The position numbers were made by a program, and so were the translations under genes. The notes beneath the pieces are model-generated. The model searched no databases. It was not told the DNA's origin and worked only from the letters and a program-made list of their open reading frames with translations. A stretch of DNA of 64,000 bases from Glaciecola sp. (lineage in GTDB: Bacteria; Pseudomonadota; Gammaproteobacteria; Enterobacterales; Alteromonadaceae), in contig CBFHTO010000014.1 of NCBI GenBank assembly GCA_965658765.1, positions 90-64,089 of the forward strand, given 5' to 3'. Below are positions 51,337 to 58,043 of this stretch, one piece after another. Position 1 is the stretch's first letter; every line of letters starts with the position of its first letter.

Positions 51337-53214
51337 TTAGAGGCCACTGCCATTTAGTAATAAATGAACACCGATACTGGCCACATATCCTAAGGCTATC
51401 ACTGGTGTCCACTTGAGATGCGCCATGAAGGTATATTTACCCCTAGCGGCACCTAGCAGGGCAACACCAGCTGCAGAACCTATTGCTAGCATACTTCCAC
51501 CAACACCCGCGGTCAGTGTAACCAACTGCCATTGTTCAAGTGGCATGACGGGATCCATCGTTAATACGGCAAACATCACCGGAATGTTATCTACAATCGC
51601 AGATAATACACCTACAAGCGTATTCGCCCAGATGGGGCCTAAATCGTTGTACATCAATTCAGATATAATGGCCATATATCCAAATTGACTAAGACCTGCT
51701 ACGCATAAAATAACGCCATAGAAGAAAAGCAAGGTATCCCACTCGGCTCTTGCAACTTTCTCCATAACATCAAATTCTTTTACGTCGGCTCGCTGATCAG
51801 TCATGTCTTCAAACATTTCAACCGCGCCGATGCTATTGCCATTTTCATCTCTTATGGGAGCGGCACTGAACATTAAATACGCGCCCAAATTATCAAAATA
51901 GTTCGCGGCATCGTAAGACTTTCCATCTATTGGGTTATCTCGATATTGACCTCTGTAGTGCTGTCGCACACCCGTTTCTGATTTATCGTCAAGCACAACA
52001 TCTGCAAGCGTTGGACGCTCCTTTTTATAGAACGCTTTCCACTGGTCTTTTTTACCAATCATTTCAGCAGCTTTAATACCAGTAAGCTTCTCTAAGGCAG
52101 GGTTCCAATGTGTGACAGTATGGTTGTTGTCAATTATAAATGCAGGGTATTGCTGCTCGTTGATATGATCGCCGATTCTTTCTCCATAACTTTCTAGTAC
52201 TTTTAAGGGATTATTGTGTGATTCGTTTCTACCACCGAAGATAGAATCCGCAGCGATGGTTTTACCTTCTTGACGCTTAAGGTAGAACGAGTAGAGGCCA
52301 AGGTATCCTAAACCAAACATCATGCCTGTAGCTGGAGGTAAATGCAGCGCAGTATGGAAAGTGACGGCTGTGGCAATGGTTGCTAAGAATAGGCCGATCA
52401 TAATTTGCGCGCCGCGTTTCATCACCACATGATCATCAGACGCTTCAGGTGCCCCTTTAGGCAAAGCGAAACTCATTATTACGGCTGGCACTAACCAGTT
52501 AACTACTGATGGAACAAAAATTGGAATAAATTCTAAGAATTCTACTTTACCCTTTTGCCACACCATCAGCGTGGTTATATCTCCAAACGGAGAAAAAGCC
52601 CCACCAGCGTTCGCAGCAATTATGACGTTGATACATGCAATCGATATAAATTTTAGATCTTTGCCACCAACGGCCATTACCACAGCACCCATCAAAAGAG
52701 CAGTGGTTAGGTTATCAGCGATAGGAGAGATGAAGAAAGCCAGCACCCCCGTTATCCAAAAGACCTTTTTGAGAGAATATCCACGAGAAACTAAAAATGC
52801 ACGCAAAGCTTGAAATACGTTGCGTTCTTCAAGCGCATTGATGTAAGTCATGGCAACTAAAAGAAACAAGAATAACTCTGCATATTCGATAATAGCGTGT
52901 TTTATTGCGTCATGCGCATAGTCTGACATACCGATGTCTTTAAATGCCAATGCAACTAAAATCCAAATTACACCAGCTGCAAAAAGAACCGGTTTACTTT
53001 TCAGTAAGTGAATCTCTTCTTCTAATGGTACAAGTGAATAAGCTAGGACAAAAATTGCGACTGCGGCATAGCCATAAAAAGTGGCACTAAGATCGGGTAT
53101 TGTAATATCACCTGATGCAAACGAATTAAACGGCAGTAAAAGTAGGGTGGCGAACGTTAACAGCAAACGAAAGCTTAGGTAATTGCTCATAGATTGAAGT
53201 ATCGACGTATTCAT
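51337..53214 (-). CDS. nhaD: NhaD-type Na+/H+ antiporter with an internal PAS domain
   Basis: NhaD motifs LEEEIHLLKSKP, AELFLFLLVAMTYINA, SPIADNLTTAL, ANAGGAFSPFGDITTLM, RAEWDTLLFFYG, SAIVDNIP, GGSMLAIGSAAGVA; PAS-like insert at about aa 345-476. Confidence 0.9.
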   Translation of the reverse strand: MNTSILQSMSNYLSFRLLLTFATLLLLPFNSFASGDITIPDLSATFYGYAAVAIFVLAYSLVPLEEEIHLLKSKPVLFAAGVIWILVALAFKDIGMSDYAHDAIKHAIIEYAELFLFLLVAMTYINALEERNVFQALRAFLVSRGYSLKKVFWITGVLAFFISPIADNLTTALLMGAVVMAVGGKDLKFISIACINVIIAANAGGAFSPFGDITTLMVWQKGKVEFLEFIPIFVPSVVNWLVPAVIMSFALPKGAPEASDDHVVMKRGAQIMIGLFLATIATAVTFHTALHLPPATGMMFGLGYLGLYSFYLKRQEGKTIAADSIFGGRNESHNNPLKVLESYGERIGDHINEQQYPAFIIDNNHTVTHWNPALEKLTGIKAAEMIGKKDQWKAFYKKERPTLADVVLDDKSETGVRQHYRGQYRDNPIDGKSYDAANYFDNLGAYLMFSAAPIRDENGNSIGAVEMFEDMTDQRADVKEFDVMEKVARAEWDTLLFFYGVILCVAGLSQFGYMAIISELMYNDLGPIWANTLVGVLSAIVDNIPVMFAVLTMDPVMPLEQWQLVTLTAGVGGSMLAIGSAAGVALLGAARGKYTFMAHLKWTPVIALGYVASIGVHLLLNGSGL

Positions 53215-53379: not shown

Positions 53380-53826
53380 TTACCATGTACCCGTATTGTC
53401 CATAGACACCCATGGTTCTTTTGCATCTAGCGCTTTGCCTTTTTGTAAAAGCTCGATAGAAATACCGTCAGGCGATTTCACAAACGCCATATGTCCGTCT
53501 CTAGGAGGGCGGTTAATAATAACCCCAGCGTCTTGCAGTTTTTTGCATAAGGCATAGATGTTTTCAACACGAAACGCTAGGTGTCCAAAAGCTCTTCCAT
53601 TTGCATAAGGCTCATCTTGTGGGTCCCAGTTATAGGTCAGCTCAAGTAAAGGCGATTGTCTGTCTTTGGCAAGGGCTTTATCTTCAGGGGCTGCAAGATA
53701 GACGAGTGTGAAGCGACCTTTATCACTTTCGTAACGATTAATTTCAACTAGGCCCAAAAGGTCGCAATAGAAAGCCATTGACTCAGATAAGTCGCTCACT
53801 CTCACCATAGTGTGTAAATACTGCAT
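53380..53826 (-). CDS. gloA: Lactoylglutathione lyase (glyoxalase I)
   Basis: [10 protein letters not shown]; RFTLVYL; LELTYNW; FGHLAF; [13 protein letters not shown] at 53826 with GGAG RBS. Confidence 0.9.
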
Positions 53827-54033
53827 ATAACTCCTTAGTATCACTTAAAAATTCAATAATAAACCATTCTTAATATGGTTCTAGTTTTATCCAATATCAC
53901 AGGGTACACTTGTATAAACAACAAGCAAAAATTAAATCGAAACTTTGCTGTTAAACAAGAAATACAAACGACATCAGAATAATGATGATGGTCTATTGAG
54001 CTAATACTAATAAATAAAAAGAGAAATCGCCCA

Positions 54034-55722
54034 ATGAAAAATATTACTTTTCTTGTTCTTAGTCTTATATGTTTTAGCAATTCTCTACTTGCTTACGACC
54101 GTATTACTGGTTTTCCTTTTGCGACGCGCTCGGAAGTGATTGCCCAAAATGGAATGGCAGCTACTAGCCAGCCACTTGCCACACAACTTGCCTTGGATAT
54201 TTTGAAAAGAGGTGGTAATGCGGTGGATGCCGCCATCGCCGCAAATGCAATGCTTGGCTTGGTTGAACCTACAGGTTGTGGTATCGGCGGGGATTTATTT
54301 GCCATAGTGTGGGATGCAAAAACGCAAAAATTATATGGTTTGAATGCATCTGGCCGTTCTCCAAAATCACTCACTCTTGATTATTTTAAAGAAAATCGCA
54401 TCGACAGTATCCCTAAATTTGGACCCTTGCCTGTTTCTGTACCTGGCGCGGTTGATGGTTGGTTTAAGTTACAAGAACGATTTGGCAGTATGAGCATGCA
54501 AGAAATTTTGGCACCTAGCATTGCTTACGCCAAAAGTGGATTCCCAGTTTCGGAGTTAATTGCTTACTATTTAGAGGTAAATCAAAAACGTATCGGGCAT
54601 TATCCTGGCTTTACAGAGACATTCACGTTTGACGGTAAGACACCCAAAAAGGGACAAATATTTCGCAATCCTGCTCTTGCAAGTACCTATGAAAAAATCG
54701 CAACGGGTGGCCGTGACGCATTTTATAAAGGTGATATTGCACGGGTTATTGGAGCTTTTATGAAGGAGCAGGGTGGATTCTTGAGTTATGAAGACATGGC
54801 ATCACATACCTCTGACTGGATAGAGCCGGTTTCGACTAATTATCGGGGATATGACGTTTGGGAGCTACCGCCTAATGGTCAAGGGATCGCGGCATTGCAA
54901 ATTTTAAATATTCTGGAACTTTATGATATCGAAGGTATGGGATTTGATTCACCAGAATATGTTCATACCTTTGTTGAGGCGAAAAAACTGGCGTTCGCAG
55001 ATAGGGCAAAGTTTTATGCTGATCCAGACTTTAATGAAATCCCTGTTGATTGGCTTATATCAAAAGAGTACGCAAAGCAACGTCAAAAGTTAATCGATGC
55101 TTCACAAGCAGCAAAAAGGGTTGATGCTGGGCGACACGAGGGCGATACGATTTATTTAACCGTCGCCGACAAAGATGGAAACATGGTTTCGCTTATTCAA
55201 AGCAATTACCGTGGGATGGGTTCTGGTATGATCCCTACGGGGCTTGGCTTTGTGCTGCAAAATAGGGGAGAGATGTTTGCTCTTCAGCAAGGACATTTTA
55301 ATCAGTATGCACCAAATAAACGTCCTTTCCATACGATCATTCCTGCTTTTGTCACTAAAAATAACCAGCCATTAATGAGTTTTGGGGTCATGGGCGGAGG
55401 TACTCAACCTCAGATGCACGCTCAAATAGTGGTAAATATGATTGATTTTGGTATGAATTTACAAGAAGCTGGAGACGTGCCAAGAATTATTCATACTGGT
55501 TCGAGCACTCCGATGGGTAAAGTTATGACTGATGGCGGCTATATCAGCCTCGAATCGGGTTTCAGCCCACAAACACGGCGCGAATTGATCAAAAAAGGGC
55601 ATGTTTTAAGGGATAGCTTAGGCGCTTTTGGTGGTTATCAAGCTATTATGTATGATGCAAAGAATGAAACTTATTTCGGCGCGTCTGAATCTCGTAAAGA
55701 TGGACAAGCGGCAGGATATTAA
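54034..55722 (+). CDS. ggt: Gamma-glutamyltransferase (secreted)
   Basis: Signal peptide; GGNAVDAAIAA; GIGGDLF; nucleophile GDTIYLTVAD; KRPFHT; GVMGG..Q. Confidence 0.93.
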   Translation: MKNITFLVLSLICFSNSLLAYDRITGFPFATRSEVIAQNGMAATSQPLATQLALDILKRGGNAVDAAIAANAMLGLVEPTGCGIGGDLFAIVWDAKTQKLYGLNASGRSPKSLTLDYFKENRIDSIPKFGPLPVSVPGAVDGWFKLQERFGSMSMQEILAPSIAYAKSGFPVSELIAYYLEVNQKRIGHYPGFTETFTFDGKTPKKGQIFRNPALASTYEKIATGGRDAFYKGDIARVIGAFMKEQGGFLSYEDMASHTSDWIEPVSTNYRGYDVWELPPNGQGIAALQILNILELYDIEGMGFDSPEYVHTFVEAKKLAFADRAKFYADPDFNEIPVDWLISKEYAKQRQKLIDASQAAKRVDAGRHEGDTIYLTVADKDGNMVSLIQSNYRGMGSGMIPTGLGFVLQNRGEMFALQQGHFNQYAPNKRPFHTIIPAFVTKNNQPLMSFGVMGGGTQPQMHAQIVVNMIDFGMNLQEAGDVPRIIHTGSSTPMGKVMTDGGYISLESGFSPQTRRELIKKGHVLRDSLGAFGGYQAIMYDAKNETYFGASESRKDGQAAGY

Positions 55723-56679
55723 ATGAGCCAAGCACAGAAAGGCATCTGCGCAGAGCCTAACTTACATTCTCTGTATTTGTTGTTTAATGTTGTGGACGAA
55801 GACATCGAATGCATTCGCTCTAAGCTTTCGAGGTTGCTGGATATTTTCGAACATTTTGATAATGAACATTATGAAGCGATGGTATCTGGTGTTATCGGCA
55901 TAGGTCATGCATTCTGGGAAGAATTATACGGTGAAACCCGTCCGATGCATTTGTCGCCTTTTCCAGACATGCAATGTGAGGACAGAGTTGCACCAGTCAT
56001 CCTCGCTGATTTATTCATTCAAATAAGGGCAGACCGCTTAGATATATGCCAAGCGATGGGCATGGAAGTTATGCAGGTCTTAAAACTTCATACCGAATTG
56101 GTAGAACAGATCCAAGGCTTTCGATATTTGGATGGCAGAGACTGGACCGGTTTCGTGATTGAGGACGCCAACCCAAGGGGTAGCAAAAAGTTTAAAGTAA
56201 GTTTGGTAGGTGATGAGGATCCCGTATTTACAGGCGGTTCATATATTCATATTCAGCGCTATCGCCATGACATGCAAAAGTGGAATACTCTTTCCGATAA
56301 GTATCAGCAACAAGTAATGGGTAAAACAAAAGAGCACAATTTAGACGTAGTCGGTCCTGAGCTTGATTCACATGCGTTTAGGACGAAAATTGTGGGTCCC
56401 GGAGGGCAGTATCCGATTTATCTCAATCAAAGCATGCCATATGGTGACATGACCGCTCAAGGTATATATTTTGTCGCCTGTAGCAGTCATCCTCAGTCAT
56501 TTAAAGACTTGCTACATAGCCGGATTTATGGAGATTCAAATGGTCATTATGACCGTTTATTGGATTACACCGTCGCAGAGACGGGAGCTGCATTTTTCGC
56601 GCCGCCAATGAGCTTTATTCGTCAACAGGCGCTGTCACAGCAAGCTGAAGAGCTCGATAGTGATGTACTAGACAACTGA
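55723..56679 (+). CDS. DyP-type peroxidase homologue (YfeX-like) with altered distal residues
   Basis: GICAEPNLH; GFRYLDGRD; GGSYIHIQRY; DSHAFR (proximal His); QSMPYG; ETGAAFFAP. GFVDG is replaced by GFVIE. Confidence 0.85.
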   Translation: MSQAQKGICAEPNLHSLYLLFNVVDEDIECIRSKLSRLLDIFEHFDNEHYEAMVSGVIGIGHAFWEELYGETRPMHLSPFPDMQCEDRVAPVILADLFIQIRADRLDICQAMGMEVMQVLKLHTELVEQIQGFRYLDGRDWTGFVIEDANPRGSKKFKVSLVGDEDPVFTGGSYIHIQRYRHDMQKWNTLSDKYQQQVMGKTKEHNLDVVGPELDSHAFRTKIVGPGGQYPIYLNQSMPYGDMTAQGIYFVACSSHPQSFKDLLHSRIYGDSNGHYDRLLDYTVAETGAAFFAPPMSFIRQQALSQQAEELDSDVLDN

Positions 56680-56966: not shown

Positions 56967-58043
56967 ATGTTAAAAATTTTAATATCTATCGTAACATTGT
57001 TGAGCTTCGCTTCGTGTCATTCAATCGCACAAACGCTTGAATCAGATCCCTTGGTAATCGGTACGAAAGTGGCGCCTCCTTTTGTTGTTAAAAACGACCA
57101 GGGTGAGTTTGAAGGTATCTCCATAGAGATGTGGAGCCATATGGCTGAAAAACTTGATTTACGCTATCGGTTTGAAGAAGCTGATCTAGCGCAATTAATT
57201 GAGGGACTTGAGCAGAAGCATTACGACGCATCTATTTCTGCCATCACGGTCACATCTGACCGGCTCGAGAGCATTGATTTTACCCATCCGTTCTTTACTA
57301 CTGGACTTGCTATTGCAACTACCAAAAATGAAAGTTCGTGGACAAGTGCCTTAGCTCGGTTTTTCTCTTGGGAGTTTTTGGTCGCGCTTTCTGGTTTATG
57401 TGTGGTGCTTTTGGCGGTAGGGTTTGTGTTATGGCTGTTTGAACGTAAGCGCAATACAGAGCAATTCGGCGGCTCGGCAGCGCAAGGTTTGGGCGCTAGC
57501 TTTTGGTGGGCAGCAGTGACCATGACAACTGTTGGCTATGGCGATAAAGCGCCCACTACGCTTGGCGGGAGAGTAGTAGGCTTGGTCTGGATGTTTGCCG
57601 CGATAATTATTATCAGTAGTTTTACCGCAGCCATTGCAACAAGCTTAACGGTTAGTCAACTTGAATCATCCATTGAAAGCATCGATGACTTATATGGTGC
57701 GAAGGTGGTGACATTGCCTAATTCTGCCAGCGCCACTTTTTTATCGTCAATAAACGTGAATTATACGACAAGGTCTGATTTACCCAGCGCATTAGAAGAA
57801 CTTAGACAAGGCAGTATAGAAGCAGTGGTTTACGATAAACCTATCCTTCAGTATTTAGCTAACACGCAATTCGATGATGAGATATTGATATTACCAGGAG
57901 AAATCGAAAGACAAGACTACGCCATCGGTTTACCTGTAAATAGTCCACTAAGAGAGCCGCTCAACAAGGAATTGTTATCGCTTATAGAAAGCGAAAAGTG
58001 GGAAGTCATCAAAGAGAAATACTTAGGTTCGGGTGAAGAATAA
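56967..58043 (+). CDS. GluR0-like ligand-gated K+ channel (split substrate-binding domain plus pore)
   Basis: Signal peptide; S1 (PPF..ISAITVTSDR..IDFTHPF); M1; pore FWWAAVTMTTVGYGD; M2; S2 (AVVYDKPIL..YAIGLP). Confidence 0.88.
   Translation: MLKILISIVTLLSFASCHSIAQTLESDPLVIGTKVAPPFVVKNDQGEFEGISIEMWSHMAEKLDLRYRFEEADLAQLIEGLEQKHYDASISAITVTSDRLESIDFTHPFFTTGLAIATTKNESSWTSALARFFSWEFLVALSGLCVVLLAVGFVLWLFERKRNTEQFGGSAAQGLGASFWWAAVTMTTVGYGDKAPTTLGGRVVGLVWMFAAIIIISSFTAAIATSLTVSQLESSIESIDDLYGAKVVTLPNSASATFLSSINVNYTTRSDLPSALEELRQGSIEAVVYDKPILQYLANTQFDDEILILPGEIERQDYAIGLPVNSPLREPLNKELLSLIESEKWEVIKEKYLGSGEE

Follow-up and report, generated by a model that had tools for sequence, protein, structure and literature searches.

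A conserved class B DyP homologue of Glaciecola without the distal Asp/Arg pair, and recurrent replacement of that pair in the Alteromonadaceae

The gene considered here, dyp, is an open reading frame (ORF) of 318 aa encoding a class B/P, TyrA-like protein of the DyP fold, and lies at positions 55723..56679 (+ strand) of a 64 000 nt stretch of a Glaciecola sp. genome (assembly GCA_965658765.1, contig CBFHTO010000014.1, positions 90 to 64 089; the whole of this stretch is hereafter called the window). The loss of both canonical distal catalytic residues from its product (hereafter the query) is a direct sequence fact and depends on no statistical pattern: isoleucine stands at the site of the catalytic aspartate and asparagine at that of the distal arginine, while the frame is open and the side of the pocket that carries the haem ligand is preserved. 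An earlier reading of this DNA, made from the letters alone (the original prediction), had pointed to these two replacements and proposed a probable pseudo-peroxidase; what it missed is the larger picture, namely that the distal pair has turned over again and again across the family in one single-copy gene whose copies are positional orthologues. We lean towards the view that the query is a cytoplasmic haem-b-binding protein of the DyP fold with crippled H2O2 activation and a non-peroxidase role, and the real cellular job of the gene is probably not peroxidase chemistry.

Results

Fold and pocket of the dyp product

The nearest solved relative of the query is TyrA of Shewanella oneidensis (2HAG/2IIZ; phmmer E 1.5e-77 over residues 2–301), and the next by sequence are R. 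jostii DypB, S. lividans DtpB, encapsulin-associated DyPs, VcDyP, YfeX and KpDyP. An AlphaFold2 model built on 91 homologues, with a predicted local distance difference test (pLDDT) score of 92 and a predicted template modelling (pTM) score of 0.90, had 2HAG/2IIZ as its best Foldseek matches [template modelling (TM) score 0.91/0.95, root mean square deviation 1.4–1.5 Å]; all the other strong matches were also DyPs, and the TM scores of the top hits ranged from 0.85 to 0.95. TyrA (SO_0740), a class B/P DyP with bound haem, shares 41 % structural-alignment identity with the query, and the two are alike in length, in their two ferredoxin-like domains, in the proximal His segment and in the QSMPYG strand.

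The alignments to TyrA and DypB are ungapped around both distal motifs, and phmmer set TyrA rdLtgfvDgTEnp against rdWtgfvIeDAnp of the query, and eiLRqsmpyg against iyLNqsmpyg. Where TyrA has the canonical Asp of VDGTENP and the Arg of ILRQSMPYG, the query has Ile146 and Asn235, and it differs from TyrA further by W141, D148, H205, F219, H256 and R267. Within the distal loop RDWTGFVIEDANP (aa 139–151; 56137..56175, + strand), the counterpart of the GXXDG loop RDLTGFVDGTENP by alignment, the motif reads GFVIE, with Ile146 (56158–56160) at the catalytic Asp site, Asp148 (56164–56166) as a clade-specific gain, and the Asn150 of the loop kept. Within the segment YLNQSMPYG (aa 233–241; 56419..56445, + strand), aligned to ILRQSMPYG, Asn235 (56425–56427) takes the place of the distal Arg and Ser237 is kept.

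The proximal haem-ligand segment, H217-A-F-R220 (56371..56382, + strand; assigned by alignment and conservation), begins within a DSHAFR motif that starts at aa 215, so that the proximal His is His217; its hydrogen-bond partner, by register with DypB Asp288, would be Asp277 (56551..56553, + strand). By alignment the haem-ligand side (His217, Asp277 and Arg220) is therefore kept in the query, and the original prediction, whose ORF coordinates and residue numbers were exact, was right about both distal replacements, the retained His217 and the intact frame. Residues D143, R232, S234, L246 and F248 of the class B enzyme KpDyP/YfeX correspond to query positions 146, 235, 237, 248 and 250; the KpDyP pocket residues Ser234, Leu246 and Phe248 thus have Ser237, Ile248 and Phe250 as counterparts, all of which we count as retained. 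Also retained, as Asn150, is the ‘distal Asn’ that a recent review places four positions past the Asp in PpDyP and BsDyP (PMC13234801). Two further residues, His256 (56488–56490) and Arg267 (56521–56523), together spanning 56488..56523 (+ strand), are candidate compensating residues on the basis of clade conservation.

The frame of dyp is uninterrupted from ATG to TGA (318 codons), and its product matches Dyp_perox_N and Dyp_perox_C of Pfam (PF20628, 105.7 bits, cut-off 20; PF04261, 51.9 bits, cut-off 20.4) as well as the NCBIfam superfamily model TIGR01413 (153.7 bits, cut-off 100.5), the last score being low beside the 200–240 bits of canonical family members. Both the hidden Markov model (HMM) cut-offs and the two-domain ferredoxin-like α+β barrel fold place the query in the class B/P DyP family. 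Of the residues that mark a functional DyP, the proximal His and its acidic partner are present in the sequence; the GXXDG Asp (or Glu) and the distal Arg are absent. The query does not belong with EfeB or the class A/I deferrochelatase-peroxidases: it scored 28.1 bits with TIGR01412 (twin-arginine translocation (Tat)-exported EfeB; cut-off 428), its N-terminus (MSQAQKGICAEPN) has no twin-arginine (RR) signal, and no signal peptide is evident in its sequence. No encapsulin shell gene adjoins dyp, whose neighbours are ggt upstream and a GluR0-like channel gene downstream, nor was an encapsulin Pfam domain found in the dyp neighbourhoods of relatives. With dyp as the sole DyP in the window's genome (99.8 % complete), a paralogue standing beside a canonical DyP is ruled out; the few second DyP hits in genomes of the family are proteins of 425–556 aa and of a different class.

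Conservation of the new residues within the clade of the query

Among the 120 best homologues drawn from a collection of 5.8 billion proteins, His217 is invariant (120/120), and the residues at positions 146 and 235 (given below as 146/235) form discrete groups, namely D/R in 30 canonical sequences (Paraglaciecola and others), Y/K in 33 (Alteromonas), D/K in 12 (Glaciecola and Brumicola), and I, V or L with N in 36 and with D in 4. The query lies within a fully supported 24-row clade, all of whose members combine I/V/L at 146 with N/D at 235; around it lies a 32-row clade of the same pattern (pairwise identity mean 73 %, minimum 60 %; I17/V9/L6 at 146 and N29/D3 at 235), the sister of which in the tree is the D/K group. 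The substitutions first noticed in the query are thus kept in 32/32 clade members. D/R is found in 29/29 of the canonical clade (77 % identity) and Y/K in 31/31 of the main Y/K clade (78 % identity; two more Y/K rows fall outside it), and since the hydrophobic and Asn/Asp residues are conserved as tightly as these pairs are in their own clades, the new residues appear to be as constrained as the old.

The clade of the query retains His217, Arg220, Asp277, Asn150, Ser237 and Phe250, and its specific gains are T148D (27/32), S256H (27/32) and M267R (31/32); D205H and K219F are also fixed in the 32-row clade, and L141W is fixed only in the inner 24-row clade. The D/K sister clade has Asp146 plus Glu/Asp148 (DGEDNP) together with Arg267. 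The gene is under strong purifying selection and shows no decay: 50 alignment columns are invariant across 91 homologues, the non-synonymous distance (dN; Nei–Gojobori) between the query and its nearest relatives is 0.15–0.20 with the synonymous distance (dS) saturated, and where dS was measurable their ratio was 0.012–0.065 for non-canonical and 0.014–0.063 for canonical pairs.

A second hydrophobic+Asn group (IAPDNP/LINQSMPFG) branches as the sister of the Y/K clade; among its members are Alteromonas oceanisediminis and A. flava, the latter with L/D. Uniting the two groups costs 38 log-likelihood units (approximately unbiased test, P=0.021, for a group that was named after the tree had been seen), and because forcing them together is penalized in this way the Ile/Asn solution seems to have arisen twice. 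As to the Y/K clade itself, its main Alteromonas part (P0048–P0118) has the Asp site occupied by Tyr and the Arg site by Lys in 31/31 sequences, with the motifs YxxDNP and L(I/L)KQGMPYG; these residues suggest that Tyr and Lys could ligate the haem iron, which would make the Alteromonas form a haem protein that is six-coordinate and inert as a peroxidase.

Family-wide turnover of the distal pair

A class B DyP is present in 121/121 sampled genomes of the GTDB family to which the window belongs, and is nearly always single. When the motifs were read in 120 family loci (L001–L120), the distal pair was D/R in 74 and something else in 46, the alternatives including Y/K, Y/L, D/K, D/T, D/F, D/Q, D/M, I/N, L/D and T/D, and also H/E, A/L, T/F, C/L, M/Q, N/R, E/R, T/R, Y/R, Y/N and Y/H. 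The family tree requires no fewer than 10 changes of the D/R state, at least seven of them on strongly supported branches; at the Asp site there are at least 14 changes and at the Arg site at least 11. A 47-genome, TyrA-like clade with the N-terminus MAREQF is uniformly canonical, and the variation is concentrated in the 42-genome clade (N-terminus MxQxQK) that contains the query. Around the changing pair, Arg134, Arg139, Gly143, Met238 and Asp277 are invariant in 120/120 loci and His217 is kept in 118/120; in the 46 non-canonical loci Phe250 is kept in 23 and Asn150 in 33.

Canonical and non-canonical forms occupy a conserved neighbourhood position (described below) and hence are positional orthologues, so that the pair has been replaced in place and the variants are not neofunctionalized duplicates. 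Beyond the family, 105 of the 133 nearest clusters spanning both sites (50 %-identity clusters of 1.84 billion proteins) are D/R; about 28 of the 133, some of them fragments, are not, and several share motifs with the divergent family lineages. Within the genus, the DyP of genome G050 is D/K, is identical to P0036 and is 64–66 % identical to the query, the γ-glutamyltransferase (GGT) of the same genome being 81 % identical. The DyP ORF of locus L015 is of normal length (306 aa).

In two loci from another genus of the family (L074:2983–3867 and L077:2953–3864, both on the − strand) the proximal His is replaced by Asn and Arg220 is lost. Their distal pairs are I/Q and L/Q, their ORFs are intact (297 and 306 aa), and the two proteins are 55 % identical (dN 0.36, dS saturated); here the DyP fold seems to have been kept without the haem ligand.

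Gene neighbourhood and the ggt–dyp junction

Directly upstream of dyp lies ggt (54034..55722, + strand), which encodes a GGT of 562 aa with a signal peptide (TIGR00066, 406 bits, cut-off 358). Its stop codon TAA (55720–55722) directly abuts the dyp ATG (55723), and within the junction (55713..55725, + strand) an AGGA (55713–55716) lies 6 nt ahead of that ATG, an arrangement which implies translational coupling of dyp to ggt; the + strand showed no terminator-like site within ggt, within dyp or between them. We therefore expect dyp to be co-expressed with the gene for this periplasmic enzyme. The closest relatives show the arrangement amtB … glyoxalase–ggt–dyp, and ggt and dyp are adjacent in L121–L124, where the ORFs overlap by one base (L121–L123) or stand 47 nt apart (L124).

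Across the family loci, glnK–amtB lies upstream of dyp on the same strand in 71/120, at a median distance of about 300 nt; about 67/120 have mdh and, on the opposite strand, argR downstream; ggt is inserted between amtB and dyp in 29/120 (9 D/R and 20 non-D/R). The proximity of dyp to glnK–amtB (about 48.7–56.7 kb of the window) makes a nitrogen-regulatory link possible. A search for a Fur box upstream of ggt in 27 ggt–dyp loci gave best matches with a mean of 7.7/19 mismatches, against 7.9 for shuffled sequences, and hence no signal of iron regulation. A horizontally transferred island was considered and rejected, the G+C content being flat (0.39–0.44) across 50–60 kb and the synteny conserved.

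Two genes of the window stand on the − strand between amtB and ggt. One (51337–53214) encodes a transporter with an internal PAS domain (CitMHS+PAS_9); the other (53380–53844) is a glyoxalase-I-like gene, with 114.5 bits for TIGR00068, just under the cut-off of 120. This gloA-like gene recurs upstream of ggt in the contigs of the closest relatives; tblastn gave no match to it in the family loci sampled, most of whose flanks stop in or just past ggt, and it counts as local synteny only.

The P0004 and P0016 contigs, like both other Brumicola genomes, have genes for an ATP-binding cassette (ABC) ATPase and a MacB-type permease downstream of dyp; pairs of an ABC ATPase and a MacB_PCD/FtsX permease on the dyp strand lie at L121:6976–9076, L123:7087–9264, L046:4029–6160 and L045:4011–6118. 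The window has no such pair after dyp, and a permease 44–48 % identical is encoded on another contig of its genome (G000:C37:23214–24419). The place that the pair holds in relatives is filled in the window by a gene for a GluR0-like channel (SBP_bac_3+Lig_chan+Ion_trans_2; 56967–58043, + strand, 288 nt 3′ of dyp), which thus lies near ggt, whose product releases glutamate. In E. coli, MacAB–TolC exports protoporphyrin IX upon overproduction of the class B DyP YfeX (PMC4263509).

Discussion

In the chemistry of class B DyPs the distal Asp deprotonates H2O2, and the distal Arg forms a salt bridge with propionate p7, steadies the distal architecture and aids heterolysis. Considering that the pocket of the query would be rebuilt around Ile146 and Asn235 together with Asn150, Ser237, Ile248 and Phe250, the acid–base pair for deprotonation of H2O2 and heterolytic O–O cleavage would be gone, and by analogy with the KpDyP, VcDyP and DypB mutants Compound I formation may be expected to run orders of magnitude below that of a canonical DyP. 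Thus, the rate of Compound I formation in KpDyP falls from 6.2e6 to 2–4.5e3 M−1 s−1 in D143A, R232A and D143A/R232A, the double variant (4.5e3 M−1 s−1) being about 1000-fold slower, and the distal mutants bleach haem more readily (PMC6153280). According to the review cited above, VcDyP D144V and R230L are about 100 % inactive (PMC13234801), and DypB requires its distal Arg, as cited in a large DyP survey (PMC9719856). Given these mutant data, we expect the natural Ile/Asn pocket to be a very poor activator of H2O2. Among proteins studied by experiment, KpDyP D143A/R232A, which has a wild-type-like fold and binds haem (PMC6153280), comes closest to the natural I/N state; the replacements in the query, unlike those of that variant, occur in nature, bring in bulkier residues (Ile, Asn) and come with further fixed changes.

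A bound tetrapyrrole is nevertheless likely, because the proximal His–Asp pair, Arg220 and the hydrophobic distal residues have been retained under selection, and the selected function would then most likely be the binding, handling or slow transformation of haem or porphyrin. The universal retention of the gene, the recurrent replacement of the pair and the freezing of each replacement together argue for a conserved role that is independent of Asp/Arg. In agreement, the authors of the KpDyP study, in view of its kinetics, are doubtful that class B DyPs act physiologically as peroxidases (PMC6153280), and these proteins have been described as widespread cytoplasmic haem proteins without an assigned physiological function (PMC7611857). 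The pseudo-peroxidase proposed in the original prediction is in part supported, as a probable reading, by the absence of both distal residues alongside a preserved haem-ligand side, by the conservation of the swaps under purifying selection and by the lack of any other DyP in the genome.

Several points weigh against a cytoplasmic haem-binding protein with crippled H2O2 activation. The review reports that PpDyP D132N, and BsDyP D240N/R339L acting on 2,2′-azino-bis(3-ethylbenzothiazoline-6-sulfonate), kept or raised their activity on some substrates (PMC13234801). Haem binding is something that we infer from the conserved ligand residues alone. The hints that the neighbourhood offers of an alternative function (ggt upstream, and in relatives a MacB-type ABC transporter downstream) are weak. 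Moreover, Asn/Asp at 235 is accompanied by Arg267 in 40/41 homologues, and the gained Asp148, His256 and Arg267 could, to judge by their nature and conservation, restore acid–base or charge functions.

This last point leads to the alternative that survives best, although we think it rather unlikely: a working peroxidase with relocated residues, in which the acid has moved from 146 to Asp148 and the charge from 235 to Arg267 (or His256 serves as the base), so that H2O2 activation is preserved. The three gains are nearly fixed in the 32-row clade, the sister D/K clade with Asp146, Glu/Asp148 and Arg267 would be a plausible intermediate, and Asn/Asp235 is nearly always found in the company of Arg267. 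The loop itself faces the pocket, given that the Asn150 position is a known distal-pocket residue of PpDyP and BsDyP (PMC13234801), and the corresponding loop of KpDyP makes up half of the exposed active site (PMC6153280). However, once phylogeny is controlled for, the couplings are not significant or are underpowered, that of R235 with D146 included: for R235–M267, three pairs agree and one disagrees among eight independent pairs, and loss of D146 together with an acidic residue at 148 is found in 0/12 pairs. Lineages that reached a non-canonical pair by themselves also do without these residues, as the independent I/N clade has no acid at 148 but Pro or Ala (IAPDNP), and in the Y/L lineages positions 235 and 267 both lack Arg and Lys. 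Furthermore, by the secondary-structure topology of the model, the helix after the distal strand would carry residue 267 at its far end.

An improbable alternative is that the DyP fold no longer uses haem and serves as a scaffold, as a regulatory partner or in binding some other ligand, the proximal His being kept by inertia. The orthologues in L074 and L077, which lost that His and Arg220 and still have intact ORFs, provide a precedent of a kind, and the distal pocket is variable across the non-canonical lineages, only half of which keep Phe250 (23/46) and 33/46 Asn150. Against this, the close homologues of the query keep His217 without exception (120/120), and the retention in its clade of Arg220, Asp277, Asn150, Ser237 and Phe250 besides is hard to explain unless a tetrapyrrole is bound. 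That dyp is under relaxed constraint and is becoming a pseudogene, with the swaps as neutral decay, is effectively refuted: the gene does evolve faster than its neighbour (64–66 % identity to two same-genus genomes, against 79–81 % for GGT) and end branches are long in non-canonical lineages, but the frame is intact, dN is far below dS, 50 columns are invariant, the new residues are themselves conserved and all 121 family genomes retain the gene.

Returning to a haem-binding protein with a non-peroxidase role, known systems offer partial parallels. A deferrochelatase role has been proposed for YfeX and is disputed (PMC3215433; PMC7611857). In HemQ/ChdC, of the same superfamily, the absence of the distal Arg marked a switch to coproheme decarboxylase, with the tetrapyrrole as substrate, and the ChdCs of Firmicutes, which lack a distal base, are slow to react with H2O2 (PMC7611857). 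By analogy, the chlorite-dismutase-like proteins would be the best precedent in the superfamily for a switch of function; the query belongs to the DyP branch and has no Cld/ChdC Pfam match, which makes the comparison with HemQ/ChdC one of analogy only. To our knowledge, gammaproteobacteria do not use the coproporphyrin pathway. Natural DyPs with Ser or Ala at the GXXDG Asp, such as Halobacterium VNG0798H, are described in the DyP survey (Yoshida & Sugano, 2022; PMC9719856) as subclass I1; these are class I, Tat-exported and keep the distal Arg, whereas the query is of class B and has both residues replaced.

That survey, which with 25 475 sequences is the largest published, reports that Asp is replaced by Ser/Ala only in the Tat-exported subclass I1 and that every subclass conserves the distal Arg (PMC9719856). 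Because of the latter statement, a natural, conserved and doubly substituted class B DyP appears to be an undescribed class of variant. The passages searched of a 2026 review of DyP variants hold only engineered distal mutants (PMC13234801), and a full-text literature search for DyP with Alteromonas returned nothing on these variants. Genes of this kind carry the labels ‘Dyp-type peroxidase’ or ‘putative iron-dependent peroxidase’, which probably overstate their activity.

More important than the double substitution itself is the turnover of the catalytic pair throughout the family in a single-copy orthologue, which we regard as evolutionary evidence that the conserved function can do without activation of H2O2 by Asp/Arg. 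More tentatively, it is possible that in the Alteromonas, Glaciecola, Brumicola and Ningiella lineages the retained single-copy DyP does housekeeping work in haem or porphyrin handling without peroxidase chemistry, and that different lineages have adjusted its pocket to distinct arrangements, each conserved in its own right (Tyr/Lys, Asp/Lys, Ile/Asn twice, Tyr/Leu and His-less), some of which may represent new haem coordination states or new chemistry. If so, one such form could be a six-coordinate His/Tyr carrier, and another a neutral hydrophobic pocket that binds a gas or a substrate. The natural variants D/R, D/K, Y/K and I/N are at hand for cross-complementation and spectroscopy, and, should this proposal hold, the family would offer a series of natural mutants from which the physiological function of class B DyPs could be learned.

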